DNA of 64,000 bases from Dehalococcoidia bacterium (GCA_963663185.1 OY760135.1:463684-527683); one strand, 5' to 3'; shown: positions 4,285 to 62,655, counted from the stretch's first letter. Program-made: numbers and translations. The notes: generated from the letters alone by a model not told the origin.

Positions 4285-7064
4285 GCGTGCCGCAAACAAC
4301 GTTCTCCGACTTTTACCGGGCTGTCCATGGCCATCCGCCTTTCCCCTGGCAGGCGCGTCTGGCCGAGCAGATCGCTCGGACCGACGAGTGGCCGGCCGAG
4401 ATTGGCGTGCCTACCGGACTTGGCAAGACGGCCTGCTTGGACATTGCGATCTGGTGGCTGGCGTCCCAGGCAGACCGCCACCCGAGCCAGCGGACCGCGC
4501 CAACCCGCATCTGGTGGGTGGTCAATCGGCGTCTGTTGGTCGATTCGACGGCTGAACACGCTGAGCGCCTGGCGCAAATGCTTGCCGCACCTGCCCTGGC
4601 CGGATTGGAAGGCCCGGCGCTGGCGGCGATTGACGATGTAGCCGAGCGCCTCAGTCGTCTCTCGACGATTGCAGACCTACCTCCGCTGGACGTGATTCGA
4701 TTGCGCGGCGGTGTGGCCTCCCGAGCCCCGACCGACCCATCACGCCCGACCGTGATCCTGTGCACCCTGCCAATGTTCGGTTCCTGGCTCTTGTTTCGTG
4801 GGTACGGTTCGAGGTACCGCCCGATCGACGCCGCGATGGCGGGCACCGACAGTCTCGTGCTCCTGGATGAGGCGCATCTGGTCCCCCACCTGACGTCGCT
4901 CGTGGCTGCCTTGGGTGATTGTGCACCCGCCGCGCAGGCGATTCCTGGCGATGCTCGCTCCAGCGCCAGATTGATCTCGTTGACCGCGACAGGCGATCCT
5001 TCAGGTTCCAGATTTGACCTAGACGAATCAGATGAAGCGAATCCGATCGTGAGGAAGCGGCTCGATGCCGCGAAGCCGCTGGAGATTAGGCGGCTCGAAA
5101 GAGGCGAGATTGCCAAGCGCCTAGCGGACTCGGCACTCGAACTCCTGTTGCAGGCAGCTTCGCCGGCAGCCTGCCTGGTCTTCGCCAATACCCCGAAGAC
5201 GGCACGGGAAACGTTCGGCCACCTACAGGGCAAACTGCCAGAGACAGAGACTGAACTGCTATTGCTCACCGGGCTCGCTCGCGAACGGGAGGCGGAATGG
5301 ATCCGCCGGCGGATCCTCGATCCGGCCGAGGGCATGGCCGTCAATCGAAGAGACGACAGCCCGCGCCGCCGGCACCTAATCGTTGTTGCAACGCAGACGC
5401 TTGAGGTGGGCGCCGATCTCGATGCCGAATATCTCGTCACCGAGGCTTGCGGCGTGCGGGCGCTGACTCAGCGCTTGGGCAGGTTGAACCGGCTCGGCCG
5501 TCACCCTCACGCTCGGGGGATATACATCCATCTCCCTCCGCCTAAGCGGCGCGGCGGTTCAACGTCGGAGGAATGGCCCGTCTATGGTTCGGAGCCAGCA
5601 GCGGTCCTGAGCCGACTGGATGTTGCATCCGCAGGGGGCGACGTTCGAGTCGTGGATTTGTCGCCGAGGCGGGTGGCTGAAGTCCTCGGCCCTCCTGGCG
5701 ACGATCCCGGACGCGCGCCCGAACTCTTGCCTGGCATCCTCTGGGAGTGGACGAAAACGACAATCCCACCCGATGGCGAGGCCCCGGTTGAGCCGTACTT
5801 GAGCGGCATCGCGGGCGCCGAATACAGGGTTGCCCTTTGTTGGCGCGTGCACATACCTGAGCAAGGTGAGCGCCTTTGGCCGCGGGCAAGCGACGGTGAA
5901 ACCGTTGATGTCCCAATCGCGGAAGTGCGAGAGGCGCTTCGGATGGACGATGTCGTCCATCGCCTGGCATCTGATGGGGTCACTGTGGAAACCGTTGAGC
6001 CTGGACTTCTTCGCCCGGGAGACCAGCTTGTGATTTCAGCTGACCGTGGTCTCTTGGACGGATTTGGCTGGAATCCGGCCGCCACCGGCCGCGTCGTAGA
6101 CACGTCCCTCATCGGCCAGGGGCTGCCCCTCGACAGAAAGGCGATCAAACGGCTCTGCGAAGTCGAACTGGAACCGCACGTCTTGGCCGCGTTGGAAACG
6201 GCCGAGGACGGCGATACCGATCAAGAAGAACGAAGCGCAGCGGTAGCGACAGTGTTACAGCAAGTTCGCGATGCGAAGACGCCGGACGGATGGGACGATG
6301 CTGAATGGGCCGAGTTCACCCAGTCACTCTCGTTGGTGGTCGAAGAAGCGCGCCACGAAGTTCCCCGGCTGCGGGCTAATGTTTCTGGGTCAACCCGGCC
6401 GCGCAGCGACCTGGGCAGTGAGTTCGACGAACTGTCTCTGCATTCTGCCTCGGTTGGACTCGAAGAACACGGCCGGGAAGTCGGCGCGATGGCTCGCTCG
6501 ATTGCTGGGAACATCGGCCTCTCTGATGACCTTGTGGACGTAGTGGGGCTCGCGGGACTGCTGCACGATATCGGCAAGGCCGATGAACGGTTCCAGCGCT
6601 GGCTCGATCCCGAAGGCGAACAGAGTGCGCTCTTGGCGAAGTCCAACACGCCGCGGCATCGTTGGGAGGCGACCCGCGCTGACGCTGGATGGCCCCGCGG
6701 CGGTCGACACGAGGATATCTCGGCTCGTCTGGTCAGGACGTGGCTCGAACAGAACCCAGCATGGGGTGATCCAGTGCGCAGGGATCTGTTGCTGCACCTC
6801 GTAATCAGCCACCACGGCAAGGGTCGGCCGTTGGTCCCGCCTGCTGCCGACGGCACCGCGAGAATAGTCTCTGCACAGGTGAACGGCACATCCGTCACGG
6901 CACAAGCGGACCTCTCCATCGTTGACTGGAGTCAGCCGCGACGGTTCAGGCAGCTCAACGACCAGTTCGGACCCTGGGGTCTGGCCTTGCTGGAGTCGAT
7001 TGTGCGATTGGCAGACCATGCCGTTTCGGCCGGCGTGGTTTTGTCTGGGGAGGTGACTCAATGA
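4281..7064 (+). CDS. cas3: Cas3 helicase-nuclease with C-terminal HD domain (type I-G/I-U architecture)
   Basis: SF2 helicase motif I VPTGLGKT, motif II LLDEAHL, later RLGRLNRLGR. C-terminal HD domain LLHDIGKADERFQ ... ISHHGKGRP. The helicase-then-HD order is typical of I-U/I-G Cas3. Confidence 0.85.
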   Translation: MSVPQTTFSDFYRAVHGHPPFPWQARLAEQIARTDEWPAEIGVPTGLGKTACLDIAIWWLASQADRHPSQRTAPTRIWWVVNRRLLVDSTAEHAERLAQMLAAPALAGLEGPALAAIDDVAERLSRLSTIADLPPLDVIRLRGGVASRAPTDPSRPTVILCTLPMFGSWLLFRGYGSRYRPIDAAMAGTDSLVLLDEAHLVPHLTSLVAALGDCAPAAQAIPGDARSSARLISLTATGDPSGSRFDLDESDEANPIVRKRLDAAKPLEIRRLERGEIAKRLADSALELLLQAASPAACLVFANTPKTARETFGHLQGKLPETETELLLLTGLAREREAEWIRRRILDPAEGMAVNRRDDSPRRRHLIVVATQTLEVGADLDAEYLVTEACGVRALTQRLGRLNRLGRHPHARGIYIHLPPPKRRGGSTSEEWPVYGSEPAAVLSRLDVASAGGDVRVVDLSPRRVAEVLGPPGDDPGRAPELLPGILWEWTKTTIPPDGEAPVEPYLSGIAGAEYRVALCWRVHIPEQGERLWPRASDGETVDVPIAEVREALRMDDVVHRLASDGVTVETVEPGLLRPGDQLVISADRGLLDGFGWNPAATGRVVDTSLIGQGLPLDRKAIKRLCEVELEPHVLAALETAEDGDTDQEERSAAVATVLQQVRDAKTPDGWDDAEWAEFTQSLSLVVEEARHEVPRLRANVSGSTRPRSDLGSEFDELSLHSASVGLEEHGREVGAMARSIAGNIGLSDDLVDVVGLAGLLHDIGKADERFQRWLDPEGEQSALLAKSNTPRHRWEATRADAGWPRGGRHEDISARLVRTWLEQNPAWGDPVRRDLLLHLVISHHGKGRPLVPPAADGTARIVSAQVNGTSVTAQADLSIVDWSQPRRFRQLNDQFGPWGLALLESIVRLADHAVSAGVVLSGEVTQ

Positions 7065-7960
7065 CAGAGTTTGACTGCCCTGGCTGGCCTGCATCCTGGG
7101 TTAACGCCTGGCTTGCGGCGGTCGGGGCTACTCTGCTCGACGAACGCATTCGCCTGAGTTGGACTGATGAAGCCGAGCCCAAGGCTGTGCTTGCGTGCAC
7201 GACGATTGATCCTCTTGACGCCCTCACGGAGTCGTGGCCAGACGCCGACTTTCTGTCCACTCTGCCGATTGCTGAGGACTGGCAAGGCGCGGGTCGGCTC
7301 GGACGGAAGGTGAAGGTTGCAGACTTCAGAGTGCGCGCACGATCGGCTCGAAGCAACAATCGAGCATGGACCCTTTCGTCGACAATCACCGATCTCAGCG
7401 TCGACCGGCAGGGAGAAGTCCTTCACGCGCCGTTCGATCCGGCAGGTCCCGGGACTACGAAATGGCTGCACCACCGTCTGGTGAAGGTCCATCGGCACGT
7501 GAGGTGCCCATTGTCAACCTTGCGAGCGTCGCTTAGCGGACAAGCCGAACGTGTGAAGGACAATGGCTTGGGTTTCGACCAGACCAGACTCGGTTCCCTA
7601 CAGGACGCGACGGATCCCTGGGTTGATCCGATTGTTGAAGTGTTAGCCTTCTTTGGTCTAGGCATTTTTCCTGTACGCGGCCGCGGGGTTGACGGACAAC
7701 TTGACCGCTCAGCCGACCTCCGCGTGCGACAGCGAGGGTGGCGGCAATCAGAGGTTCGCGGCGAACCAGCAAGTTTCCTCTGGCCTGCGTGGCACCAGCC
7801 ACTTGATCGCGACGGGATCGATGCTCTATTGGATGCCTGGAAACCAGATCGTCAAGACACCTGGTCGCAGCTAGGCATTCACGCCGGGTGGCATACCATC
7901 CAGTTTCAACGCAGAGGTGATGCCGATTCGACGCGCGCGTTCGGATCAGCGCGACTATGA
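7061..7960 (+). CDS. Cas-operon protein of unknown role (Csb3-like; possibly the large-subunit/Cas8u equivalent)
   Basis: 299-aa ORF translationally coupled between cas3 and cas4. No motif recognised; assignment by position only, from a recalled Dpsyc-subtype order csb1-csb2-cas3-csb3-cas4-cas1-cas2. Confidence 0.35.
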   Translation: MTEFDCPGWPASWVNAWLAAVGATLLDERIRLSWTDEAEPKAVLACTTIDPLDALTESWPDADFLSTLPIAEDWQGAGRLGRKVKVADFRVRARSARSNNRAWTLSSTITDLSVDRQGEVLHAPFDPAGPGTTKWLHHRLVKVHRHVRCPLSTLRASLSGQAERVKDNGLGFDQTRLGSLQDATDPWVDPIVEVLAFFGLGIFPVRGRGVDGQLDRSADLRVRQRGWRQSEVRGEPASFLWPAWHQPLDRDGIDALLDAWKPDRQDTWSQLGIHAGWHTIQFQRRGDADSTRAFGSARL

Positions 7961-8574
7961 GTCCTGAGCCTGTCGTCCAAATCTCGGCGATCGAGCACTT
8001 TATCTATTGTCCGCGGCAGTGCGCCATCATCCACTGCGATGGCGTCTGGAGCGACAACACCCACACCGTTAGGGGCACGCGCGCGCACCGACGAGTGGAT
8101 TCTGGCGAGCATCGTCGCGAACGGGGACGGCAGGTGCTGCGCTCAATCCCGCTCTGGTCGGAGGCGCTTGGGCTAACCGGCCGCGCAGACGCGGTGGAGG
8201 TACAAGAGGACTTGGTGTGGCCAGTGGAATACAAGGCCGGAGTTCGCCACGGCAACGCCGCGGACCTTCAACTGTGTGCCCAAGCGCTCTGTCTCGAAGA
8301 GATGCTTGAGATTGAGATTGCGCACGGGTACGTGTGGTATGGCGGCCCGAGAAGACGCGTGAAGGTTGACTTTACAGAGGCGCTGCGCAAGGAAGTACAC
8401 GAGGTCATTGCGGCGATCAGGAAACAACTGCTGACGTTCAGTTTGCCGGAAGCACCGAACGACGCGCGCTGCCAAGAGTGCCAGCTCTTGCACCACTGCT
8501 TACCGGAGCTCAGCAGCGCTCCGCTTCGAGTAAATCGTTACATTGAGAACGTCGTCTTCCAATGCGATACCTAA
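7957..8574 (+). CDS. cas4: Cas4 (RecB-like nuclease with Fe-S cysteines)
   Basis: N-terminal YCPRQC and C-terminal CQECQLLHHC cysteine cluster; conserved VEYK in the middle. Stand-alone, not fused to cas1. Confidence 0.8.
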   Translation: MSPEPVVQISAIEHFIYCPRQCAIIHCDGVWSDNTHTVRGTRAHRRVDSGEHRRERGRQVLRSIPLWSEALGLTGRADAVEVQEDLVWPVEYKAGVRHGNAADLQLCAQALCLEEMLEIEIAHGYVWYGGPRRRVKVDFTEALRKEVHEVIAAIRKQLLTFSLPEAPNDARCQECQLLHHCLPELSSAPLRVNRYIENVVFQCDT

Positions 8575-9578
8575 ACACCGTTTACGTTCGGGACCATCGT
8601 GCTCAGATTCGCCATCGTAAAGGATCACTGATCGTCTCTTCGCCAACAGGCAGCCAGCGAGTCCCATTGGAGGCGGTAGATGGATTGGTGTTGCTGGGTG
8701 GAGCTCAAATTACGTCGCAAGCGCTTGACGCCTGCGTCCGTGGTGGCGTGCGCGTCGCAGCACTCAAGATGAGTGGTGCTGTCCGCTTCGTCGTCCTCGG
8801 TCCCACGAGTGGCAACGTGCATTTGCGGACAGCACAGTTCGAAGCCGTCATGGACGACAATCGATCGTTGACAATGGCCCAGTCGATCGTGGCAGCGAAA
8901 CTGCAGAACAGCAGGAAAGTCGTCGCGCGCTGGGCGAGGGACGAGAAGCGCCCCGCTGAGGCTGAGCAGCTTGCATCACGTGCATCGCAGATCGAGGCGC
9001 GGATTGCGCGCTTGCCGAAAGCTGAATCGGCGAACGGCGTGCGCGGCATAGAAGGCGACGCAGCGAGAATCTACTTTCGCGCTCTCAGGCTGGCACTATC
9101 GTCAAGCGAGCTCGAGTTCTCGGGTCGCACACGCCGACCGCCGAGAGACCCCATCAATGCACTGATGGGGTTCTGCTATGGCATGGTCGTGACCGAGTGC
9201 ATCGGCGCCGCCGAGAGTGTCGGCTTGGACTTTCAGATGGGATGCTTCCACCGGCCCCGCGCCGGTCGACCCTCACTTGCGCTCGACTTGGCGGAAGAGT
9301 TTCGTGCGCTCACGGACAGGTTCGTTGTCTCGCTGGTCCGCCGCCGGCAGATCGGCCCCGATGACTTTGACCACACACCCGGAGGCGCTGTGTATCTCAG
9401 CGATGGCGGCAGAACTCGGCTGCTCGCTTCCTGGGAGCAGCACAAGGAGACGGAGATTTATCACCAGTTGCTGGGCCGTCCAGTCGAGCGATGGGCACTG
9501 CCGTCGGTCCAGGCCACGCTTCTCGCTCGCCACCTGCGTGGAGACCTTCCAGCCTATCCACCGTTCGTGTTGCCCTAA
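8562..9578 (+). CDS. cas1: Cas1 integrase
   Basis: 338 aa, Cas1-like N-terminus (MRYLNTVYVRDHRAQIRHRKGSLIV ...) and acidic C-terminal half. Overlaps cas4 end and precedes cas2. Confidence 0.85.
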   Translation: MRYLNTVYVRDHRAQIRHRKGSLIVSSPTGSQRVPLEAVDGLVLLGGAQITSQALDACVRGGVRVAALKMSGAVRFVVLGPTSGNVHLRTAQFEAVMDDNRSLTMAQSIVAAKLQNSRKVVARWARDEKRPAEAEQLASRASQIEARIARLPKAESANGVRGIEGDAARIYFRALRLALSSSELEFSGRTRRPPRDPINALMGFCYGMVVTECIGAAESVGLDFQMGCFHRPRAGRPSLALDLAEEFRALTDRFVVSLVRRRQIGPDDFDHTPGGAVYLSDGGRTRLLASWEQHKETEIYHQLLGRPVERWALPSVQATLLARHLRGDLPAYPPFVLP

Positions 9579-9582
9579 GACC

Positions 9583-9873
9583 ATGGACGTTATCGTCACT
9601 TACGATATCGCTGACACGCAAGGAGCAGGCCGGGTGCGCCTCAGACGCGTGGCCGACGTCTGCGGAAAGTACGGTCAACGGGTCCAGTTCTCAGTGTTCG
9701 AGTGTCGCCTCTCGAACACGAAGCTGACCCGTATGATCGGCGAGATCGAGGACGTAATCGATCGTCGGAAAGACTCTGTGATCGTCTACCGGTTCCCTGG
9801 TGCTGCTGAAGACTCGAAAATTCACCTTGGCCGCACCGATTCGCGAAAGCTCGGGGAACCTTGGATACTCTGA
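9583..9873 (+). CDS. cas2: Cas2
   Basis: ATG at 9583, 96 aa: MDVIVTYDIADTQGAGRVRLRRVADVCGKYGQRVQFSVFECRL... is the typical Cas2 fold signature. The ORF-track start at 9217 is an upstream in-frame extension. Confidence 0.8.
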   Translation: MDVIVTYDIADTQGAGRVRLRRVADVCGKYGQRVQFSVFECRLSNTKLTRMIGEIEDVIDRRKDSVIVYRFPGAAEDSKIHLGRTDSRKLGEPWIL

Positions 9874-10025
9874 GCACCGCTGCGAACCGCCGGTGATTCG
9901 GTTTCTCAACCGCCCGAAATGCTCCATGTCAGCGAAAGCAGACTTTCAAGTGACCTCCACGGGTAGTAGAATCACGAAGAAGGGAGTCTTGCCCCTCCGC
10001 CTTGACAACAGAATCCGATTTAGCA
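9874..10025 (+). promoter_or_regulatory. Putative CRISPR leader
   Basis: 152-bp region between cas2 stop and first repeat. The terminal, degenerate repeat is at the opposite end of the array, consistent with a leader here. Confidence 0.5.
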
Positions 10026-38751: not shown

Positions 38752-40226
38752 GAGTCAAGCAGCGGCGCGATCCTCGTGGCGTGAACGGTGACTCCAGGCG
38801 AGGACTTCGTCGTAGGGGGTCTGCGAGCGGAGGCACCCGTGCAGGTAGCCGACGAGGCGGTTCGCCAGGGCGCGGAGGGCCTGGTAGTGCGGGTCGCCGG
38901 CGGCGCGACGGCGGTCGTAGAAGTCGCGGCAACCGGGGCTCGCGCGCAACGAACACATCGCCCACTGCATGGTGGCGTCGCCGAGCCGCCGGTTGCGGAT
39001 GAAGCGCGCCCTCACGGTGCGCTTGCGGCCCGATGCTACGGTGAGGGGCGAGGTGCCGGCGTAGTTCCTGCGGGACTTCGCCGACTCATAGCGTTCGGGG
39101 TCGTCCCCGAACTCGCCAAGCACCCGGGCGCCGAGCACGACACCGAGACCGGGCATGGAACGGTAGATGTCGGCGTCCGGGTGCTGCTCAAAAGAGGCTG
39201 CCAGCTCGGCCTCGAGTTCGGCGATCTGTCCGTTGATCGCGTCGATCTGGGTCACGGTCGCCCTGGTCGTCGCGGCGAAGGCCTGGCTGACCGTGGCAGG
39301 CACCTCCAGCTGCTCGACTCGGAAGGCCTGACGGAGCTCGGCGGCGCGCTGCTCGACGTTACGCTGGCGGCCGCCGCGGCGCAGCGCCGAGCGCATCTGC
39401 GACGTGCTCAGCCGCGCCGCCTCGCGCGGCCCCGGTGCGGTCGCCAGCACCCCCACGGCGTCGCCGTGCGCCAGGCTGGGAAACGCTTGCAGGGCCCCGG
39501 GAAAGTACTCCCTGAGCGCGTTGCGGAGCCGGTTCGTCTGCCGGGTGCGGTCCCAGACGAGTTGTTGGTGGGCGCGGGCGAGGATACGCACGGCGGCCGC
39601 CTCGTCGCTGTCGCCGGCGACCTCGCGGTGGTTATGCCGGTCGGTCCGCACGAGGTCGGCGAGCAGCTTCGCGTCCCCGGCATCGGACTTGGCGCCACTG
39701 ACGTGGTGGCGGTCGCGGTAGCGCGACGCCGAGCGCGGGTTGATCGCGTAGACCCGGTAGCCGACCGCCACCAGGGCCATCACCCACGGGCCGCGGTCGG
39801 TCTCGATGCCGACGACCACCTCGTGCGGTCCCGAGGCGTGCCCGGCAACCAGTTCGTGCAGGGCGGTGATGCCCTCCACCCCTTCGGGCAGCCGCCGGGC
39901 GGCAAGCCGCTCGCCCGCTTCGTCCATGAGATGGACGTCGTGATGGTCCTCCGCCCAGTCATCACCCAAGTACAAGGCCATCGTGTTTCGGTTCCTCTCC
40001 AGTTCGCGCTTTCTGGTGCGACCCGGTGGGTTGGTTCCCGCGACGGCCTAATGAATCGGTGCTCTTGGGCACGACACCCCATCAGTGCTGCAGAACAACC
40101 CAGACATGCCGGCAAGGGCTCAGTCTTTCTTCAGCGGTCACACGCCGCAGGAACCGAGAGAGCTCACCGGCCAGCAGGGTCCAGGACCAGTCTGCCAGAG
40201 GTCCTCCGGCGACTGATCTGACCCCA
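38752..40226 (-). mobile_element. IS110-family insertion sequence (extent approximate)
   Basis: About 1.47 kb between the two TolB-like fragments, fully occupied by an IS110 transposase gene. IS110 elements lack obvious TIRs, so boundaries are inferred from flanking gene fragments. Confidence 0.6.
38755..39981 (-). CDS. IS110-family transposase (DEDD N-terminal domain plus Transposase_20 C-terminal domain)
   Basis: N-terminus MALYLGDDWAEDHHDVHLMDEAGERL matches the IS110 family (GIDWAxxHHDVALmD). 408 aa. Confidence 0.8.
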   Translation of the reverse strand: MALYLGDDWAEDHHDVHLMDEAGERLAARRLPEGVEGITALHELVAGHASGPHEVVVGIETDRGPWVMALVAVGYRVYAINPRSASRYRDRHHVSGAKSDAGDAKLLADLVRTDRHNHREVAGDSDEAAAVRILARAHQQLVWDRTRQTNRLRNALREYFPGALQAFPSLAHGDAVGVLATAPGPREAARLSTSQMRSALRRGGRQRNVEQRAAELRQAFRVEQLEVPATVSQAFAATTRATVTQIDAINGQIAELEAELAASFEQHPDADIYRSMPGLGVVLGARVLGEFGDDPERYESAKSRRNYAGTSPLTVASGRKRTVRARFIRNRRLGDATMQWAMCSLRASPGCRDFYDRRRAAGDPHYQALRALANRLVGYLHGCLRSQTPYDEVLAWSHRSRHEDRAAA

Positions 40227-41630
40227 TTAGAAGCCGTATTCACCGTGCCCTTCACCAGGTAGATAGAGACTCAGCAGGCGTCGCGAGTCGGGCGACCAGG
40301 ACAACGACGGGTCTGCCGGGTGATGCGTGAAGTAATAGGCGCCGGCATCGGGGAAGGTGATGGGCTCACCGCCGTCGACAGGGGTGATCGTGATGTCTCG
40401 GGAGAGGTCGCCGCTCTCATAGTCAGGCCGCGTGCCGCTGGCGGCGTAGCGACCATCCGGCGAGAAGACGACCCACTGCGAAGGCGCGAAGGCGATTGGC
40501 TCGGCATCCTCGAGCGGATTCCATCGCACCAGATCGTCGAGCTGCCCGACGATGCTGCCGTCGTCGCGCCATTGCCAGCGCCAGAGTTTGTCTGTGCGGC
40601 GAACCTCGCGGCTGCGCGCGCCGCGGGTTGGCGTCGCAATCACTTCGGTATCGCCGCTGAGCATGTACGGCAGCGATTCGGGATCGACGTTCAGTTCCAC
40701 CTCCGAGAGGCGCACCCAACCGACCGGTGGTTGCAAGTCGTTGAGCACGATCGCCAGCCATTCGCCATCGAGCGAGCGACCGAGTACGCCGTAGGTATGC
40801 GGATCCTGGTAGTCCCCATAGGTGTGGTATCCGCTCTCGCGCTTGCCGGGCCGCAGGAAGATGACGGGACTGCCAGTGCTGATCTCTGCCGTGACCCGAG
40901 TCTGGTCGCTCGGCGGATACCAGACGCCCCAGACCGTACCGGTGTAGACAGACAACGATCCTGAACCTCGGTTGATGTCCAGATCGTTCGCATCGGCCCA
41001 CAGCGCGTATTCGTTGTTCGGTAGCAGGATGGCGATCTGCCTCCCATCTTCCGACATTCCCAGCAGCCTGACGCGGATCGGCTCGGCGCCTGGCACGATC
41101 AGATCGCCCATCGGCAGCAGGTTGGGGTCTAGCATCGGCAAGGTCATGGCGTCATCGAGGGTCAAGGGCGTATCGGCCAGACGGACCCAACCATCCAGAT
41201 CGCCGTTCAGGTCCAGGTGCAGCCACAGCTCGCCGCTGTCGAGCTGGGTCCATCCGTCGCCCAGTAACAGGGTCCGCTCACGGAAATCCACGAACGGCAG
41301 GATGTCGTCGCGCGGTCTGTGATAGACGCTGAGCTTCTCGGTCAACCTGAGGAGCAAGTACGGATTGGATTCCGCTTCTGGAACGTCATCGCTCGGCCCC
41401 ACCGCAGCCGATTCGTCAGCTGGCTCAGCTGGTGACGCGGGCGCGGATTGCGGCGCATTCGATCGTTGCCCTGCGGGCTCCTCGGAGAGCGTGGTCTGGG
41501 ACTCTGACCGAGAGGGCTCGGTTTGGAGCGGCACCTGGACAGAGGGCACTGCGTCGTTCGAGCACGCGACCACGGCGGCCAGGGCGAACGATCCCAGCAG
41601 TACGAGTGAAACGACGAGCGCGTTGGACAT
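40227..41630 (-). pseudogene. N-terminal part of a TolB-like beta-propeller lipoprotein (interrupted by IS110)
   Basis: Lipoprotein signal MSNALVVSLVLLGSFALAAVVACS. PD40 repeats FSPDGRYAAS, WSPDSRRLLS. Ends about 250 bp from the IS110 transposase start. Confidence 0.55.
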
Positions 41631-48818: not shown

Positions 48819-49736
48819 GTGCGTATCGAGGACGACTCTGGCATTTCCGACCTGTTGATTGGCGACGCGCAACGACTCTGCGGCGGCTTCGGCTTCACTG
48901 AGGGGCCGGTCTGGATCGCGGACGACCGTGCGCTCGTCTTCAGCGACATCCCTGGCAATCGGCAGCATCGTTGGCGGCCGGGGCAGAGCGAGGCGGAGGT
49001 GTATCGCGAGCCGAGTGGTTGGTCGAACGGACTGACGCTCGACGCCGAGGGCGCTCTGATCGCCTGCGAACACGGCGGCCGGCGCGTCTCGCGCGCGCCC
49101 TACGGAGCGGTCGGCAGCGAGACGGCGATCGCTGAGCGTTGGGACGGCAAGCAGCTCAATAGCCCGAACGATCTCGTCGCGCATTCATCGGGCGCGATCT
49201 TCTTCACCGATCCCGCGTATGGCATCGACAGCGGACGCACGCCGCGATTCGGGCAGGCAGGGCAGCAGCAGGAGCTGGACTTTCAGGGGGTATATCGAAT
49301 CGATTCAGATGGGTCGCTGCATCTCCTCGCGCCGAGCGGCTTTTCGCAGCCCAATGGCCTGGCGTTCACCCCGGATCAGTCGCAGCTCTACATCGGGGAC
49401 TCGTACGAGGGCCTGATCTGGCGCTATGAGGTCAATGACGACCTGACGCTCGGCGCGCGCGAGCTGTTTGTCGATCAGTCACAGGATCAGCGTCTGGGCA
49501 ATCCGGATGGGATGAAGGTGGACGCCGACGGTCGGCTGTGGACGACGGGTGCCGGAGGCGTCTCGGCGCATGCGGCCGACGGCGCCTATCTGGGCGTGTT
49601 CGAACTGGACGAGCACGCCGCCAATCTCACCTTCGGCAGCGACGGATTCTCCACTTTGTATATGACCTGCGGTACCAGTCTCTATGCCATCGAGACATCG
49701 GTGCGAGGCCTCGCGCCAGGCTCACGCGACGCCTGA
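48819..49736 (+). CDS. SMP-30/gluconolactonase/LRE-like (SGL) beta-propeller hydrolase
   Basis: GFGFTEGPVW ... LVFSDIPGNRQHRW ... SPNDLV motifs typical of the SGL family. SD GGAGAGG upstream of the GTG/ATG region. Confidence 0.75.
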   Translation: MRIEDDSGISDLLIGDAQRLCGGFGFTEGPVWIADDRALVFSDIPGNRQHRWRPGQSEAEVYREPSGWSNGLTLDAEGALIACEHGGRRVSRAPYGAVGSETAIAERWDGKQLNSPNDLVAHSSGAIFFTDPAYGIDSGRTPRFGQAGQQQELDFQGVYRIDSDGSLHLLAPSGFSQPNGLAFTPDQSQLYIGDSYEGLIWRYEVNDDLTLGARELFVDQSQDQRLGNPDGMKVDADGRLWTTGAGGVSAHAADGAYLGVFELDEHAANLTFGSDGFSTLYMTCGTSLYAIETSVRGLAPGSRDA

Positions 49737-49854
49737 ACGCGGCGCCATCCGCAGCTGCGGCACGACTTCAAGGCTTGACGATGCTGACGCTATCTTGTCC
49801 AAGAACAACTAACGTCTCGTATTGGGAACTGTTCTAGAGCACAGGAGAGAGGCG

Positions 49855-52800
49855 ATGTCGCCGCGCATATGGGCCGAACCTGAGGGGCCGCTTGGGACGT
49901 ATGTGAGCATGGAGTCGGAGCGCGCCATTGAGGCGTATCGCGCCCAGCCAGCGTTGGTTGAAGAACAGGCCAATCAGGAGATGGATACGGCCCAAGGCGG
50001 TTACGCGCACCGTCAGCTCGTCGAACTGGTTCAGAACGGCGCCGATCAGCTCGCCAAGTCTGGCGGCGGCAAGATCCAGATTCTGCTCAGCGAGCGACAC
50101 CTCTATTGCGCCGACAACGGCGCTCCGCTGGATCAGGAGGGCGCTCAATCACTGTTGTTCTCGCACCTGTCGCCGAAACGGAACACGAACGAAATCGGAC
50201 GCTTCGGGGTCGGCTTCAAGGCGGTCCTGAAGGTCTCGAACTCGCCGGCCGTGTTCAGCCAATCCGGCTCGATCCAGTTCGATCGGACGCGGGCGCGACA
50301 GCGGATCCTGCGCGGCGGCGACGCGAGCACTGCTCGAGCCTGTCCGGTGCTGCGCGTGGCGGACGCTGTCGATCCGTACGAAGCGGCGGAACGAGACCAG
50401 GAGCTCAACTCGCTGATGCGCTGGGCGGTCAACATCGTGCGCTTGCCGCTCTTGCCCGGCGCGGCGGACGATCTCCAGCGACAGGCCGACAGCTTCCGCG
50501 CCGGCCTGTTGCTCTTCACGCCGCATCTGCACGAGCTGACGCTGGTGCAGCCCGAGTCGAGCAAGGGCTATTCCGTTCGCTCAATGAGCGCCAGGAGATC
50601 GGGCAAGCTGATCGAACTCTCGGACAACGACAACGACAACGATGTCGTCTCCGAGTGGCGCGTCTTCGAGCGGATGCATTCCCTCTCCCAGTCCGCCAGG
50701 GACGATCGGCGTGAACTGGACGACTCGGACCGCATCAAGATCTCCTGGGCGGCGCCGCTGTCATTGGGACCGACGGACGAGCACAACCAGCGGTTCTGGG
50801 CATTCTTTCCCACGCAAGTGAACAGTCTGGTTGGCGGCATCCTCAATGCGCCCTGGAAAACGAATGAGGACCGCCAGAGTCTGCTGCCTGGCGAGTACAA
50901 CAATGAACTGCTCGACGCAGCTGCCGAGCTGGTGGCCGACCATCTGACGGAGCTGAGCGATGCAGAGTCGCCTGCGCGGCATCTCGACTATCTGCCTCGC
51001 CGCGAAGGTGGTGGCGACAACGACTACGCCAATCGGATTCGCGCTGCGCTGAATGAACGCCTGGAGGACGCAGCGATCGCGCCCGATCAGCAAGGTCGTC
51101 TACGACCGCTCCGTATGATCAACGTCCCACCGGAGGCGTTGACGCCGGGGCAGCAAGTCAACATAGAGGCTGTCAACCTGTGGACGTCCTATCCGTACCG
51201 ACCCGTGTCGTGGTTGCATACTGACGCCCTCAATAACAATCGGTTATCGGCGCTGCAACGCGTGGGCGGCGGCGGGCGCTCACAGCGTGGCTCGTTGGAT
51301 CGCGCGACCGTGGCGGCGTGGTTGGAGGCGCTCACTGAGTTGGGCGATCGCCGCGGTGATGCAGTCGAGGCATCGGCGCGAGCGTTGCGGATTGCCGCTA
51401 CGTTGCGCAGCGCCAATCGCGCCGATCGATGGCAATGGAATCCACGCACAGCCGGCGACATCGTGCTCACGGTATCGGGCGAGTGGGTGCCGCCGGATCC
51501 CGATCGCGTGTTTCTCTACGCCGAGCCCGTCTCCAATCCCGACGCCATGGTCCACCGCGAGTTGATGCAGGATGCGAAAGCGCTTCAGGCCATGAAGTCG
51601 CTGGGATTGCATGCTCCGAGCGCGGAAAGCGCTTTCCGCGCGTCCGCCCAGCGGGTATTGGACGACTGGGACATTGACGATCATCAGGCTTGGACGCAAT
51701 TCTGGCAGCTCAGTCGGAAGGTCGATGATTCCGCATTCTTTGAGGAGCTACCCAGCGCTGACGTAACGCATAGGTACCTACGCGCCCGCGGATTGGACGG
51801 CCGCTGGAAGCCGATTCAACAGTTGCTGCTCCCCGGCGTCATCGTGCCGCCCGACGGCAGCCGCGATGCGCCGCACACGCTCGATATCGAGTTTCACCAC
51901 TCTGATCTCGCGCGACTACAGAAACTGGGCGTATCGGATCGTCCGCAAGCTGGAGCTTGGGGAACGATCTCGACGCAACACGATGCAATCTCAGACTACG
52001 TGCGAGGCTGTCAAGACCACTACTTCGCTCTGGACCTGCCTCGCAGACCACGAGGGTGGGTTGCACCCTTTTGCAAAGAAGATACGAGCGTGCCGCTGGC
52101 GCCGTTTCCGGACCTGTCGGAAGTCGGGCAGGCGCGTTATACGGAAGAGCTGCTTGATCTGCCCTCGACCTATACGCCCTGGACGATGTGGCATGACACG
52201 TCGGACAACATTTATCCCAAGATCGAGATGGAATCGCTGCCGGTGTACCTGCTGAAGCGGTTTGGTCGGGTGGAGACGGCATCCGGGATGTATCCGTTAT
52301 CCGACGGGCTCGGCGAGCGGCCGAAGCGCCCTGAGGTGCGGCGTTGGTTGCTGCAACGCCGCCGCACCGCGCAGATTCGCCAAGCCTTTGGACTGACCAA
52401 CGCGGCAGCCGGTCCGATTGAAGCAATCGGCGCCGATGATCCGATTCCATTGCTCGATGTCTGGGCTGGGCTGCGGCGGCGCCTCACGGAAGAGCAGCAG
52501 CAGCTCCAACTCACGCGCTGCGATCGCATCGCGCGACAGGACGGCGGCGAGATTGCGGACGAGATCGTGATTCGCGCCGACACGTGCTACCTCGTGCGCG
52601 GCGAGGAACGCGATGAGCTGGAATGCGTGGCGCGCGAACTCGAATTGCAGCTCTCGGACCAGGATCTGGACCGGATCCTGTCGCGGCGCGTTTCCGATGA
52701 TGTCAGGGAGCATCGAGAGCGAGTCCGTTCGAACGGCAGCGATGCGGAGCGGCTGCTCGCCGCGGTCGGGGAGGACGACCTGCGCGCCCGCTTGCCCGCC

Positions 52801-54354
52801 ATGCTCAGCGAAATCTTGAGTTCCAAGTCGGAACCGTTTACCGGCGTGCGGGTTGCGGAGGCGGCGATCGCCACCTTCCACACCGGGGCGCTGCACGAGT
52901 ACAGATGTCACCTGGGCAAGCTCGATCCGCCAGGCCGCTGGGCAGGCAGTGGGAAGGCGTTGGAGTTTGTCCGCGAGCTCGGGTTTGGCGACGAATGGGC
53001 CGGCAGACCGAAACCGAAGCGTCCGCCATATGTCGACGCTGTCGGACCGCGTTCGCTGCCGCCGCTGCATGATTATCAGCGCCGAGCCGCTGAGCAGGTC
53101 AAACAGGTCCTGCGCGCCTCACAGGGGCGCATGGAGGGAGAGAATCGCGGGTTGCTGAGTCTGCCGACCGGGGCGGGCAAGACGCGTGTCGCGGTGCAGG
53201 CGGTGATCGAAGCGATTCGCGATGAGGACTTTCCCGGCTGGGTGCTCTGGGTGGCGGACCGCGATGAGCTCTGCGAGCAAGCGGTTGAGGCCTGGCAACA
53301 GGCGTGGGTCAGTCTTGGACCGCCCGCCCAGGAGCTGCGCATCTCCCGCATGTGGGGCAATCAGCGACCACCGGAAACCACCTCGTCCGCCAGCAACGTG
53401 ATCGTCGCCACGATCCAGACGCTCCGTTCGCGCATGGCCCGTTCGCGCAACAATCGCGTCAACGGCCTGCCCGACTATCTGCGCGGGATCAAGCTGCTCG
53501 TCGTTGATGAGGCGCACGGCTCGTTGGCGCCGTCCTTCACGCAACTGATGTCAGAGCTGGACCTGTCGTTCCGTCGGCGCGCCGACGAAATCGCGCTCCT
53601 CGGCCTGACCGCGACGCCGTATCGTGGACGGAACGAAGAAGCGACGAGGTTGCTGGTCAATCGCTATGGAGCGAATCGACTCGACACGGGGCTGTTTCCT
53701 GATCTGGCCATTCCGGATGCGCCGGAGCAGACGAATGATCCGACGCAGGTGATCGCGGAATTGCAGCGGATGAACGTCCTGGCGCGCGCGGATCACGGCA
53801 TCATCGAGGGCGGCACCGTCGAGCTGTCGTCGGATGAGCGGCGCAAGATGGAGCAGACCCCGTGGCTGCCTGAAGAGGTTGAGCGCCGAATCGCCCTCGA
53901 CCTCGATCGCACGCAGCGAATCATTGCGGAGTACCGCGAACGGGTCCACAATGTCCAGCCGGATTGGCCCACGCTGATCTTCGCGACCTCCGTCGAACAC
54001 GCGAAGACGGTGGCGGCCATGCTGGAGTTGGAAGGCGTTTCGGCGCGAGCGGTCAGCGGCGATACCGACCCTGGCGTGCGCCGCGCGGTGGTTGAGGACT
54101 TTCGCGCCGGCAAACTGAGGGTGCTCGTCAACTACGGCGTCTTCCGCGAGGGCTTCGACGCGCCGAAGACGCGCGCGATCATCGTGGCGCGTCCCGTCTA
54201 CAGTCCGAACCTGTACTTCCAGATGATCGGTCGTGGACTGCGCGGGACACTCAACGGCGGCAGCGAGCGCTGTCTGATTCTCGACGTGGCGGACAATGTG
54301 ATCAATTTCGAGAATCAGTTGGCCTTCACGGAGCTTGAGGAGTTGTGGGAGTAG
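49855..54354 (+). CDS. About 1500-aa fusion of an N-terminal GHKL (Hsp90/MORC-like) ATPase domain and a C-terminal SF2 (ResIII/DEAH-type) helicase, with an about 800-aa uncharacterised middle
   Basis: GHKL N-box ELVQNGADQ, G1 ADNGAPLD, G2 IGRFGVGFKAV. C-terminal helicase motif I LPTGAGKTRVA, II LLVVDEAHG, III GLTATPYRG, VI QMIGRGLRG. ATG 49855 with SD GGAGAGAGG preferred over TTG 49822. Confidence 0.75.
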   Translation: MSPRIWAEPEGPLGTYVSMESERAIEAYRAQPALVEEQANQEMDTAQGGYAHRQLVELVQNGADQLAKSGGGKIQILLSERHLYCADNGAPLDQEGAQSLLFSHLSPKRNTNEIGRFGVGFKAVLKVSNSPAVFSQSGSIQFDRTRARQRILRGGDASTARACPVLRVADAVDPYEAAERDQELNSLMRWAVNIVRLPLLPGAADDLQRQADSFRAGLLLFTPHLHELTLVQPESSKGYSVRSMSARRSGKLIELSDNDNDNDVVSEWRVFERMHSLSQSARDDRRELDDSDRIKISWAAPLSLGPTDEHNQRFWAFFPTQVNSLVGGILNAPWKTNEDRQSLLPGEYNNELLDAAAELVADHLTELSDAESPARHLDYLPRREGGGDNDYANRIRAALNERLEDAAIAPDQQGRLRPLRMINVPPEALTPGQQVNIEAVNLWTSYPYRPVSWLHTDALNNNRLSALQRVGGGGRSQRGSLDRATVAAWLEALTELGDRRGDAVEASARALRIAATLRSANRADRWQWNPRTAGDIVLTVSGEWVPPDPDRVFLYAEPVSNPDAMVHRELMQDAKALQAMKSLGLHAPSAESAFRASAQRVLDDWDIDDHQAWTQFWQLSRKVDDSAFFEELPSADVTHRYLRARGLDGRWKPIQQLLLPGVIVPPDGSRDAPHTLDIEFHHSDLARLQKLGVSDRPQAGAWGTISTQHDAISDYVRGCQDHYFALDLPRRPRGWVAPFCKEDTSVPLAPFPDLSEVGQARYTEELLDLPSTYTPWTMWHDTSDNIYPKIEMESLPVYLLKRFGRVETASGMYPLSDGLGERPKRPEVRRWLLQRRRTAQIRQAFGLTNAAAGPIEAIGADDPIPLLDVWAGLRRRLTEEQQQLQLTRCDRIARQDGGEIADEIVIRADTCYLVRGEERDELECVARELELQLSDQDLDRILSRRVSDDVREHRERVRSNGSDAERLLAAVGEDDLRARLPAMLSEILSSKSEPFTGVRVAEAAIATFHTGALHEYRCHLGKLDPPGRWAGSGKALEFVRELGFGDEWAGRPKPKRPPYVDAVGPRSLPPLHDYQRRAAEQVKQVLRASQGRMEGENRGLLSLPTGAGKTRVAVQAVIEAIRDEDFPGWVLWVADRDELCEQAVEAWQQAWVSLGPPAQELRISRMWGNQRPPETTSSASNVIVATIQTLRSRMARSRNNRVNGLPDYLRGIKLLVVDEAHGSLAPSFTQLMSELDLSFRRRADEIALLGLTATPYRGRNEEATRLLVNRYGANRLDTGLFPDLAIPDAPEQTNDPTQVIAELQRMNVLARADHGIIEGGTVELSSDERRKMEQTPWLPEEVERRIALDLDRTQRIIAEYRERVHNVQPDWPTLIFATSVEHAKTVAAMLELEGVSARAVSGDTDPGVRRAVVEDFRAGKLRVLVNYGVFREGFDAPKTRAIIVARPVYSPNLYFQMIGRGLRGTLNGGSERCLILDVADNVINFENQLAFTELEELWE

Positions 54355-54421: not shown

Positions 54422-55636
54422 CTACCAGAAGGGGGCGTCCGCCTCCAGACCGAGTAGGACTCGGCCAGCGACCGCATAGTTGGAGGCACCGAGCACCACA
54501 TGCTGGTTCATCGCGTGCATGTCGCGCAGGCGGCGGTCGAGCGTTGAGCGTTCGCTGTAGAGCGCCGACGATCCGGCGATGGCGTAGAGCTGCTCAATGA
54601 TCCGCGCGCCTTCTCGATGCGCAAAGGTGATCGCGAGCCGCAACTGAGCGCGAGTGTGATCGGCGAGCTCGCCCGTGTCGCAGACTTCGCGCCAGGCGGC
54701 GTCTACGGTAGCGAGCGCGTAGGCGCGACAGGCTGCGATCCGCGCGGCGGTCTCACCGAGCGTGGACTGTGTCAGCGCGTCGTCGCGCAAGGCGCCGCGC
54801 ACGGCCACCCGCTCGCGAGCGATCGCCAGCACTTCGGCGTGGGCGGCCTGCAAGAGCCCGAGCGGTACGCCCAGATGCTTCGGCAACAGCCAGGCCGGAT
54901 GGCGCAACGGATCGTCGATCACCGATCGGTGCGAGGCGCGAGGCGGCAGACTCCGTTCATCGGGGATGAAGAGGTCGGCTACCTCCACGTCGTGGCTGCC
55001 GGTCCCGCGCATGCCGGTCGTGCGCCAGGTGTCGAGCACACGGACATCGTTACGGGGCACGACAAAGCGGACGAAGGCGGGGCGGTCGTCGGGCGACCGT
55101 TCAGCGTCCACGATTCGGCAGCTGAACTGCACCCAGTCGGCATGAGTGACGCCGCTCAGATAGGGCCAGCGACCGTTGGCGAGATATCCGCCCGCCACGC
55201 GGGTCGCCGCGCCTGGCGGAAAGGCGGCGCCGCATGTCGCCGAGTCAACGTCGGCGTAGAGCGCGCGAGCGAGTTGGGGATCGAGCTCGCGGCTGACGAA
55301 GCCGCCATCGCAGCCGATCATGACGCACCAGGCGGCGGACGCATCAGCCTTCGCGATCTCTTCAATGAACAGAATCTGCGTGACCGGGTCCGCGTTGTGT
55401 CCACCGAGCCAGCGCGGTTGGATGAGACGGAATCCGCCCGCCTGTTTGAGCAGTTGGACGACGTGATCCGGGAGTTGGCGCGCCGCTTCGATTTCCTCAG
55501 CGGCGTCACGGATGGCGGGCGCGATTGCGCGGGCAGCCCGCAGCAGATCGGCGCGCTCTTCGACGGTCGAGCCTACGGTCGCTGCCACGGATCGCTCCTG
55601 CACCACGGGGATGCCTCCGCCGACGTGGTTTCTCAA
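54422..55636 (-). CDS. Acyl-CoA dehydrogenase-family flavoprotein (possibly a flavin-dependent monooxygenase)
   Basis: ACAD-like N-terminus (RAARAIAPAIRDAAEEIEAARQLPDHVVQLLKQAGGFRL) and C-terminal ACAD fold; 404 aa; start uncertain. Confidence 0.6.
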   Translation of the reverse strand: MRNHVGGGIPVVQERSVAATVGSTVEERADLLRAARAIAPAIRDAAEEIEAARQLPDHVVQLLKQAGGFRLIQPRWLGGHNADPVTQILFIEEIAKADASAAWCVMIGCDGGFVSRELDPQLARALYADVDSATCGAAFPPGAATRVAGGYLANGRWPYLSGVTHADWVQFSCRIVDAERSPDDRPAFVRFVVPRNDVRVLDTWRTTGMRGTGSHDVEVADLFIPDERSLPPRASHRSVIDDPLRHPAWLLPKHLGVPLGLLQAAHAEVLAIARERVAVRGALRDDALTQSTLGETAARIAACRAYALATVDAAWREVCDTGELADHTRAQLRLAITFAHREGARIIEQLYAIAGSSALYSERSTLDRRLRDMHAMNQHVVLGASNYAVAGRVLLGLEADAPFW

Positions 55637-55936
55637 TCTACAAGGTCAGACAGCTACAAGTTCAGACAGCTACCAGCTCACACGGCTTTGCCGCGTCCTC
55701 CGGCCCGAGCGAGGGTTTGGAGAGCGATCTGATGCGTCCCATGGCCACCGGCATCCATTCCGGATCATCGCTCCAGCGGTATTGCAAACAGACTGCCAAT
55801 GCTCGAGCTGTGACGGCTCAAACACATGGAAGCTCTCGCCGCAAACAGACCTTCAACCGCACTCTGAGACGAGAAGCGGGAACTGCGTCAAGATCGGTTA
55901 ACTGCATGGTCGACAGCATTGGTCAACTGCGCGGTG

Positions 55937-61700: not shown

Positions 61701-62408
61701 TCAGCTGCGGTGTTGGCGAATGACGGACACGACGCGGCCTTGAATCTCCATGTTGGATTCGTCCGTGTAGATCGGGTCCATGGTCGGATTCTCCGGCTGG
61801 AGACGCACGCGGCCATCCTCGTAGTAGACGCGCTTCAGCGTGGCCACTTCCTGATCGTGCAGCCAGACCGCAGCCATCTGACCGTTGTGAACGCGCGAGG
61901 CCGGCTCCATGATGACGATGTCGTCCTCAGTGATGTAGGCGTCGATCATCGAGTCGCCCTTGACGGTGAGCGCGAAGTGCTTCTGCGGATCGAGTCCGGG
62001 CACGATGTCGGTGCTGACCGAGATACGTTCCTCGGCATGGTTCGCCACGACGCCTTCGGGCACGAGTGAGCGGGTACCAGCGGCGATCGTGCCGAGCAGC
62101 GGCACGCCGAGCGGCGACCGCGTCAGGGAGATGGTGCGGGCCCGCTCGCGGTCGCGGTGGATGTGACCCTCGCGCTCGAGAATCTTCAGGTTGTAGTCGG
62201 CAACCGAGGTGGAGGACAGGCCACAGCCGTCAACGATGTCGCGAACGGACGGCGGATAATCGTTCTCGATGAAGTAATGTTGGAGAAATGCGAGGATACG
62301 CTCCGGCTTGTCCGAGCGGGGACCGCGTTTGCCCCGACGACGGCCCAGCGGCTGTTCTTCCTTGATTGGGTCACTGTTGGCGGTGGTGGTCATGCTGCGG
62401 GCCTCCAT
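61701..62408 (-). CDS. lexA: LexA repressor (S24 peptidase) with N-terminal extension
   Basis: wHTH DNA-binding region YPPSVRDIVDGCGLSSTSVADYNLKILEREGHI. S24 catalytic region VKGDSMIDAYI (Ser) and later K in VATLKRV. 235 aa. Confidence 0.85.
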   Translation of the reverse strand: MEARSMTTTANSDPIKEEQPLGRRRGKRGPRSDKPERILAFLQHYFIENDYPPSVRDIVDGCGLSSTSVADYNLKILEREGHIHRDRERARTISLTRSPLGVPLLGTIAAGTRSLVPEGVVANHAEERISVSTDIVPGLDPQKHFALTVKGDSMIDAYITEDDIVIMEPASRVHNGQMAAVWLHDQEVATLKRVYYEDGRVRLQPENPTMDPIYTDESNMEIQGRVVSVIRQHRS

Positions 62409-62655
62409 TCGATCTCGGTTGAGTGTTCCCGGTTTCGAAGTGTGCTATACCTGTTATCAAGAACAAGAACGTGATCGCACATTCGAAACAGGCTCCGTTC
62501 GCTACTTGCCACTAGCATAGCAGACTTCGCACAATTGCGCGGAACCGTAGTTCTGAGGGCGCTGCCGGGCGCGGTATAAGCTGATCGTGTCCAACTGCCC
62601 GCCGCTGCTCGGCGACTGATCGCGTGATCGCGCAATCCCCACTACTCGGAGAGTA

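Follow-up and report, generated by a model that had tools for sequence, protein, structure and literature searches.

What purpose might be served by a bacterial gene that joins, in one chain, an ATPase of the GHKL type and a helicase of superfamily 2 (SF2)? The question is raised by a gene at 49855-54354 in a 64,000-nucleotide stretch of a Dehalococcoidia bacterium genome (GCA_963663185.1, OY760135.1:463684-527683), analysed here over its full length and referred to as the window. A preliminary description of the same DNA had regarded the gene as a candidate defence or genome-maintenance factor. The analysis reported here favours, with a probability of roughly 55%, the view that the gene encodes a stand-alone protein of an as yet uncharacterised family of nucleoside triphosphatases (NTPases) that moves horizontally and is of the conflict or defence type. 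A role of this type is favoured because relatives of the gene are wired to toxin genes and because both halves of the encoded protein have kin in restriction-like operons.

The gene occupies a single open reading frame (ORF) on the + strand (49822..54354), within which the complete coding sequence (49855..54354, stop codon at 54352-54354) specifies 1499 amino acids (aa), in agreement with the roughly 1500 aa first proposed. The start codon is likely the ATG at 49855, just 5' of which a Shine-Dalgarno-like AGGAGAGAGG (49843-49852, + strand) can be read directly. All of the motifs quoted in the preliminary description were recovered, each exactly once, namely ELVQNGADQ (aa 57-65), DNG (aa 87-89), and IGRFGVGFK (aa 114-122) in the N-terminal part and GAGKT (aa 1106-1110), DEAH (aa 1218-1221), TAT (aa 1252-1254), and QMIGRGLRG (aa 1456-1464) in the C-terminal part. 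More than 120 full-length homologues at 47-54% identity and one at 97% were found, and none of the sources names any member of this fusion family. Across 25 aligned full-length homologues, E57, N61, D64, D87, G89, G115, G118, and G120 of the ATPase and GAGKT, DEAH, TAT, and QMIGRGLR of the helicase are invariant; a chance match is excluded because of this invariance, and both ATPase sites are, as far as the alignment can tell, intact and conserved. In the same alignment, conservation runs along the whole length of the protein, beyond the catalytic cores, and includes two invariant motifs specific to the family, APWKTNEDR (aa 332-340) and ADRDELCEQA (aa 1134-1143). The proposed succession of a GHKL ATPase, a long linker, and a ResIII/DEAH helicase likewise stands, with the profiles NF047352, ResIII, and Helicase_C all scoring above their cut-offs.

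The N-terminal module begins with a conserved segment (aa 1-52; 49855..50010, + strand, as for all parts of the protein given below) that precedes the ATP-binding fold and contains the invariant residues W6, G14, Y28, Q31, E37, N40, and G48-G49-Y50. Relatives bear antitoxin-derived extensions ahead of this segment; the window protein, with only five residues before W6, is without one. The Bergerat-fold (GHKL) ATP-binding domain follows (aa 53-145; 50011..50289), with motif I in E57/N61/D64, motif II in D87-G89, and motif III in G115-K122, and leads into a transducer-like alpha/beta region (aa 146-526; 50290..51432) that holds the invariant APWKTNEDR and is homologous to the N-terminus of TmtA, the protein of the Tiamat system. 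The NCBIfam model of the sacsin ATP-binding domain (NF047352) gives 64.8 bits, above its cut-off of 50. The Pfam SACS model (PF25794) reaches 19.4 bits in the window protein against a cut-off of 32.8, with 31.4 and 33.7 bits in two relatives, and the match of Pfam HATPase_c_3 to the window protein is weak. An AlphaFold2 (AF2) model of aa 1-530 (predicted local distance difference test, pLDDT, 71; predicted template modelling score, pTM, 0.70), in which the ATP lid and the APWKTNEDR loop are of low confidence, recovers a Bergerat fold and a transducer-like domain; its top structural match is human sacsin, and the ATPase modules of SMCHD1, MutL, and topoisomerases are further structural relatives. 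Profile and model thus concur in a predicted GHKL ATP-binding and transducer-like domain of the sacsin/SMCHD1-like type at about aa 1-530. Homology of the N-terminus is limited to the N-terminal third of TmtA and to one protein of a Dcm-linked, restriction-like plasmid operon, a 1096-aa hypothetical protein of Arthrobacter plasmid p2MP that is homologous to aa 17-693 at 33% identity (expectation value, E, 9e-84).

The C-terminal module opens with a highly conserved helical segment (aa 961-1070; 52735..53064) that is common to stand-alone, restriction-linked helicases and forms the top conservation block apart from the catalytic cores. It is followed by the first RecA-like domain (aa 1071-1257; 53065..53625; Pfam ResIII 1.2e-20, 74.6 bits against a gathering cut-off of 22.5; Pfam DEAD 9.4e-14), which carries GAGKT, DEAH, and TAT, then by a family-conserved insertion between the ResIII and Helicase_C matches (aa 1258-1365; 53626..53949), and finally by the second RecA-like domain with the C-terminal tail (aa 1366-1499; 53950..54351), in which Helicase_C covers aa 1366-1463 (6e-14, 52.7 bits against a gathering cut-off of 23.5) and QMIGRGLRG is found. 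By its profile matches, the region from about aa 960 to 1499 is a ResIII-type SF2 helicase. The nearest solved relatives by sequence are RadD (6jde, 5.9e-24), SauUSI (7clg, 4e-18), Hef, and XPB, followed by the helicases of RIG-I, MDA5, and Dicer; for the first domain, the relatives in the PDB are Hef (1wp9), MDA5, and a type I R subunit. Restriction helicases linked to phosphorothioate modification also rank among the closest kin of the module. A 538-aa helicase encoded on a Pannonibacter plasmid aligns with aa 961-1498 at 29% identity (tblastn). Its gene is followed by one for a separate GHKL ATPase and then by one for a PLD-family protein, and directly 5' of it lie genes for a cysteine desulfurase, a DUF4007 protein, an ATPase, and a PAPS-reductase, which together make an SspABCD-like set.

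Between the two modules, the preliminary description had seen about 800 aa devoid of recognisable motifs. This held in so far as neither a nuclease family or fold (Pfam profiles; fold searches with the middle region) nor a solved structural relative (fold searches of the PDB) was detected; it did not hold at either end, since the protein is TmtA-like to about aa 526, resembles the Arthrobacter plasmid protein over aa 17-693, and belongs to the helicase module over aa 961-1070. What is left as the family-specific middle is aa 527-960 (51433..52734), whose first part, to aa 693, is common to the plasmid protein. Confidence in the AF2 model of aa 405-1085 is high (mean pLDDT 83.4); the middle resembles there a row of small beta-hairpin/helix modules, after which comes a helical part. 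When five of these modules were compared by hhalign for internal repeats, all pairs but one were non-significant, the exception (aa ~524-604 against ~634-704) being weak (E 7e-4, probability 26%); given such evidence, a repeat architecture is not claimed. As a confidently modelled region that lacks a solved relative, aa 405-1085 is a worthwhile structural target.

The fusion is rare and patchily distributed. When 1.84 billion cluster representatives were searched with a profile of the middle region (aa 405-1085), 795 proteins were matched at E <= 0.001 and 414 at <= 1e-30; the family is thus a small one of about 800 clusters, counted at 50% identity. Full-length matches are nearly all 1450-1620 aa long with the middle region at a constant position, and the architecture is thus regarded as fixed; a more divergent subfamily also exists, one member of which (P0181) comes from a soil metagenome. 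A scan of 185,579 genomes, one per species, gave 326 loci (at most ~0.2%), spread over 10 phyla or more; of these loci, the best 80 were fetched. These 80 come from Chloroflexota (mostly Dehalococcoidia), Acidimicrobiia, Gamma- and Alphaproteobacteria, Acidobacteriota, Gemmatimonadota, Binatia, Opitutales, Spirochaetia, and Rhodothermales, and nearly all are metagenome-assembled genomes (MAGs; L001-L080). Many of the records bear names that were given to sponge symbionts (Poriferihabitaceae, Spongiisocius, Poriferisodalis, and Aldehydirespirator), and on the strength of these names most carriers appear to be marine-sponge symbionts. Pairwise identities mostly define phylum-coherent groups; nevertheless, some nearest neighbours cross phyla at 64-79%, as between Gemmatimonadota and Alphaproteobacteria (69%) or Spirochaetia and Binatia (67%), and some genomes hold two copies of the giant gene. 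These patterns suggest gene exchange within sponge microbiomes, and comparison of the sequences clearly points to movement of the family as a whole between lineages. Concentrated as it is in sponge-symbiont genomes of many phyla, the family may also be useful as a tracer for gene flow in that community.

The most telling feature of the relatives is their linkage to toxin-antitoxin genes. At about 30 of the 80 loci, the giant protein carries an antitoxin-type N-terminal piece, with the gene for the matching toxin immediately 5' of its own. BrnT (PF04365, E 8e-26) is found directly 5' and on the same strand at about 25 of the 80, its stop codon overlapping the giant's ATG by 4 nt (L036, L037, L043, L045, L046, L053, L055, L069, L072, L074, L076, L079, L080, and about 12 more; BrnT around locus positions 9600-9910), and is truncated or frameshifted in four (L038, L047, L066, and L067). 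It is precisely the BrnT-linked giants that have ~30 additional aa at the N-terminus (MKxEYDFSKGERGKF...), which over a short stretch resemble the FWKNAVRGRFYKP segment in BrnA proteins of plasmids; from this resemblance and its position, the peptide may be BrnA-derived. At four other loci (L011, L013, L020, and L057, around 9530-9830; truncated in L057), the gene of an HI1419 RelE/ParE toxin (TIGR02683, 128.6 bits, cut-off 62.85) stops 10 nt 5' of that of the giant, whose own N-terminus corresponds to positions 4-54 of the HI1420 antidote model (89 positions; E 1.4e-10). Three metagenomic giants (P0046, P0052, and P0055) have a HicB-like N-terminal domain, with a truncated HicA-like ORF about 100 nt 5' of one of them (L089 5740-5901), and one 1920-aa member (P0053) has a helix-turn-helix (HTH) and an ImmA/IrrE (Peptidase_M78) domain at its N-terminus. 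In the BrnT, HI1419, and HicA families, the toxin gene usually comes first. The giant carries no more of the antitoxin than its N-terminal part. This piece would be the toxin-neutralising one, and we infer that the giant replaces the DNA-binding half of the antitoxin. The window copy has neither a toxin gene nor an antitoxin-derived extension, its 5' gene being that of an SGL lactonase. Many giants of Dehalococcoidia and other Chloroflexota carry a different N-terminal addition, a lysine/arginine-rich tail of 40-60 aa (e.g., MAKRKKRNRKQKERK...; L008-L010, L012, L014-L017, L019, L021, L023, L024, L027, L040, and L077), which the window copy likewise lacks.

Beyond the toxins, no neighbour is shared. 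ORFs were called and clustered de novo at the fetched loci, and no conserved neighbour gene emerged on either side; a conserved 3' partner was sought in particular, and only local synteny among close relatives was found. The giant gene has no obligatory partner. Integrase, replication, and transfer genes are not recurrent in its vicinity at these loci, and transposases lie near it at some. Restriction genes adjoin it in a minority of cases. Type III Res and Mod flank it at three loci (L029, L073, and L078, about 4100-9860), the pair being shared, with 35-47% identity, by one MAG of Opitutales and two of Acidimicrobiia; three Acidimicrobiia loci (L049, L064, and L071) have GmrSD beside the giant gene; and in the single viral-contig match (L082 403-8589), it is flanked by a type I restriction-modification operon, a Ser/Thr kinase, and a YgjP-like peptidase. 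As a separate observation, in three Dehalococcoidia MAGs (L004 6486-14758 and its equivalents in L005 and L007) the giant gene stands inside an rRNA gene cluster, in the order 16S rRNA, tRNA-Ile(GAT), a PGA_cap gene, the giant, tRNA-Ala(TGC), and 5S rRNA on one strand, with no 23S rRNA within 10 kb downstream.

A mechanism may be proposed from these elements. ATP-driven dimerisation through the N-terminal region is established for GyrB, MutL, Hsp90, and MORC, and the GHKL module found here is of the type that would dimerise on ATP and clamp or remodel DNA-protein assemblies. The helicase, of a type employed by restriction and phosphorothioate-sensing systems, would act, like its ResIII relatives, as a translocase on double-stranded DNA, such that the protein could load on DNA and move along it, and a foreign or abnormal DNA state would then trigger the ATP-driven closing of the GHKL N-terminal gate. 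In the toxin-linked relatives, this movement would free an RNase toxin held at the extreme N-terminus and lead to abortive infection; in toxin-less copies, such as the window gene, the protein itself would block replication of the invader without cutting, for which PbeABCD provides a precedent. In its most ambitious form, this scheme describes a new kind of immune sensor, in which a GHKL-clamp/SF2-translocase of ~170 kDa replaces the DNA-binding domain of at least three unrelated antitoxin families (BrnA-like, HI1420/HigA-like, and HicB), gate closure frees the RNase toxin, toxin-less copies represent the core machine that blocks invader replication without a nuclease, and the family as a whole marks cross-phylum exchange in sponge microbiomes. 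So complete a picture is put forward tentatively, being rather doubtful as a whole. If true, it would mean that a large ATPase is able to replace the DNA-binding half of classical antitoxins, and the toxin-coupled relatives would offer a ready genetic read-out in which toxin release reports activation of the sensor.

Several observations weigh against a conflict or defence role. Identities of ~47-55% with partial phylum coherence would also fit a cellular function. Carriage by mobile elements is nearly absent from the collections searched, with one distant relative in 2.9 million viral contigs and no full-length fusion among 72,556 plasmids. A consistent defence-island context, a check for which the preliminary description had called, was not found: the 140 proteins encoded no farther than two genes from the giant (~45 loci) represent 97 Pfam families, none of them in more than five proteins, only a handful are defence genes, and most relatives stand amid metabolic genes. 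The BrnT-linked peptide has no match to the BrnA models of Pfam or NCBIfam, and the toxin linkage could serve as a stabiliser of the gene (addiction) rather than as an effector. At the window locus, no toxin, antitoxin-like extension, methylase, or recognisable nuclease was detected, the composition is native (GC content 0.638 and, at third codon positions, GC3 0.763, both inside the range of the neighbours), and a 97%-identical orthologue in another assembly has an identical neighbourhood, which speaks of a stable position. No convincing direct or inverted repeats flank the gene, nor was a sigma-70-like promoter or an excess of terminators found around it. As regards a recent insertion at this locus, the suggestion that the gene was a horizontally inserted cargo is therefore not borne out. 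In the absence of an extension or toxin, with native GC and GC3, no repeats, no Cheo-type LexA box, and an orthologue in the same context, the window copy is instead a long-resident, intact, stand-alone one.

Of the other explanations, the most serious is that the protein maintains the genome, or acts as a nucleoid factor, by combining a RadD/Hef-like repair helicase with a MutL/SMCHD1-like GHKL clamp at stalled forks or in chromosome organisation in slow-growing symbionts. Among NCBIfam models and PDB entries, it is indeed RadD that comes closest to the helicase, the modules of SMCHD1, MutL, and topoisomerases are structurally related to the N-terminus, and the native composition, stable chromosomal context, and metabolic neighbours of the window gene would suit such a role, as would strong conservation over the whole length, the phylum coherence of many clades, the lack of a detected nuclease, and residence in an rRNA gene cluster in three Dehalococcoidia. 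Nevertheless, the RadD match is partial and reaches 105 bits against a cut-off of 720, 326 loci in 185,579 species genomes are far too patchy for a core function, nearest neighbours cross phyla and some genomes hold two copies, three toxin families are coupled to the giant, kin of both halves occur in restriction-like operons, and the only Cheo-type LexA box of the window precedes lexA, not the giant gene. Genome maintenance is thereby weakened and is considered unlikely.

A selfish or addictive element, in which the helicase would serve the replication of a mobile element or act against competitors, the toxin fusions would only stabilise it, and the window copy would be a domesticated or decaying remnant, is less probable still. 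It would account for the translational coupling of toxin and antitoxin-like start at ~30 of the 80 loci, for the truncation or degradation of several of the toxins, for a patchy distribution resembling that left by horizontal gene transfer, and for the transposases near some loci; it is at odds with the lack of recurrent integrase, replication, or transfer genes nearby and the near-absence of the family from viral and plasmid collections, and an intact window ORF with all catalytic motifs and a 97% orthologue is not decaying. Least probable is a symbiosis factor, a eukaryote-like, sacsin-like protein used in interaction with the sponge host rather than an intracellular enzyme of nucleic acids. 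The sponge-symbiont names of most of the MAGs that hold close relatives, the structural match to human sacsin, and the multiple sacsin-like proteins encoded by sponges (PMC3710099) would suit it; a complete DNA-translocase-type helicase with relatives among restriction enzymes, the fusion of relatives to pieces of intracellular antitoxins, a divergent subfamily in soil metagenomes, and homologous modules on Arthrobacter and Pannonibacter plasmids from non-sponge sources would not. A family of conflict- or defence-type NTPases thus remains the preferred interpretation of the giant gene.

Several further features of the window may be recorded. As the preliminary description had it, the giant gene stands between metabolic genes, with an SGL lactonase gene 118 nt upstream (48819-49736, +) and an acyl-CoA dehydrogenase (ACAD) gene downstream (54422-55636, -); glycine-cleavage genes lie farther 5', and genes for amidohydrolases, a CoA-transferase, a DinB-like protein, a DUF7002 protein, and LexA lie farther 3'. 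Immediately 5' of the ACAD start, a tandem 16-nt direct repeat (CTACAAGGTCAGACAG / CTACAAGTTCAGACAG, 55638-55669) may be a candidate regulator-binding site. The window's only GAAC-N4-GTTC (Cheo-type) box, GAACCGTAGTTC (62542-62553), is situated in the divergent intergenic region 5' of lexA (61701-62408, -) and is probably a LexA auto-regulatory site. SOS control of the giant gene was considered and rejected, given that this sole box precedes lexA; a short inverted repeat, GAAC-T-GTTC, is present in GGGAACTGTTCTAGA (49825-49839), ~20 nt 5' of the giant's ATG, and neither in this repeat nor in GAACTGTTC 5' of the giant gene does the spacing suit a LexA box of the type seen at lexA. An IS110-family transposase gene (38755-39981, -) has a GC content of 0.715 and a GC3 of 0.883, markedly above the surrounding genes, and is adjoined by a 467-aa ORF (40227-41630, -) with no Pfam match.

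How, then, does the fusion compare with what has been described? The preliminary description had been unable to place it in any named anti-phage system, and PADLOC indeed returned partial matches only, to TmtA over its N-terminal third and to the PbeA, type IV restriction enzyme, and DpdF models over the helicase. Searches of the literature on sacsin-like bacterial ATPases and on GHKL/helicase anti-phage systems likewise yielded no description of the fusion. Tiamat, an anti-phage system of a single gene, is akin to it in two respects: TmtA (PADLOC PDLC03964-03972) has a homologous N-terminal region of 400-520 aa (best E 1.4e-48), its models aligning to aa 15-412 of the window protein and one reaching over aa 23-526, and both are very large single-gene proteins (1300-1800 aa). 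The profiles, however, align only over positions 11-402 of 1538 (best) or 23-541 of 1782 (longest), and the remaining ~1000 aa differ. Tiamat has been listed among single-gene systems with a PD-(D/E)XK nuclease (bioRxiv 2024.10.26.620412), whereas the fusion has an SF2 helicase and no detected nuclease fold. With only the N-terminal third aligned and no nuclease found, identity with Tiamat is ruled out. No study of the Tiamat mechanism was found in literature searches, and the name Tiamat is absent from the preprint of Millman et al.

RadD (YejH), although no solved structure or NCBIfam model comes closer to the helicase core (NF053632, 2.6e-30), is a protein of ~586 aa without a GHKL module, compared with 1499 aa for the fusion. 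Identity with RadD is ruled out, as the score, 105.2 bits, is nowhere near the 720 required of an equivalog and the best-matching stretch is confined to aa 1341-1484. The GHKL modules of eukaryotic sacsin (SR1) and SMCHD1 share 13-16% sequence identity with the N-terminus, but the downstream domains of both proteins are entirely different and neither has a helicase.

A further comparison is with PbeABCD, which halts viral DNA replication without DNA cleavage, and which consists of four genes, needs phosphorothioate-modified host DNA, and requires PbeA only in part (PMC6459918). PbeA shares the helicase core, its models matching aa 1092-1274 or 1094-1477 (1.5e-21), and the Pannonibacter helicase shares with the window protein both the core and the ~110-aa segment that precedes it, with the GHKL ATPase there being a separate gene. 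A PLD domain is missing from the window protein, neither dnd nor ssp genes lie near its gene, and the partner ATPase of PbeA, PbeC, is SMC-like whereas that of the fusion is GHKL; identity with PbeA is accordingly ruled out by the missing PLD domain and the lack of modification genes nearby.

The broader frame was supplied by Iyer, Abhiman and Aravind (2008), who predicted restriction-modification-like systems in which prokaryotic GHKL+S5 ATPases operate together with nucleases and SFII helicases (PMC2292703). Since both halves of the fusion have restriction-like kin, it fits this prediction, and the MORC/paraMORC-SFII systems share with it the link between a GHKL+S5-type ATPase and an SFII helicase, realised here in one ORF. 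The differences are that both ATPases form one chain, that the GHKL module is sacsin-like and not of the MORC type, and that methylase and nuclease partners are missing from the window locus, with restriction-modification neighbours in a minority of relatives. Should the fusion prove to be a defence system, it would be a single-gene one that pairs a GHKL clamp with an SF2 translocase and has no recognisable nuclease, and it would link Tiamat to the MORC/paraMORC-helicase systems predicted in 2008. In kind, the fusion is best counted with the GHKL ATPase plus SFII helicase conflict systems; it is set apart from its described kin by its coupling, in a third of the loci, to toxins of three unrelated families for which it bears the antitoxin piece, by the fusion of the two ATPases, by a sacsin-like GHKL module, and by a middle region of ~430-550 aa that has no solved structural relative.

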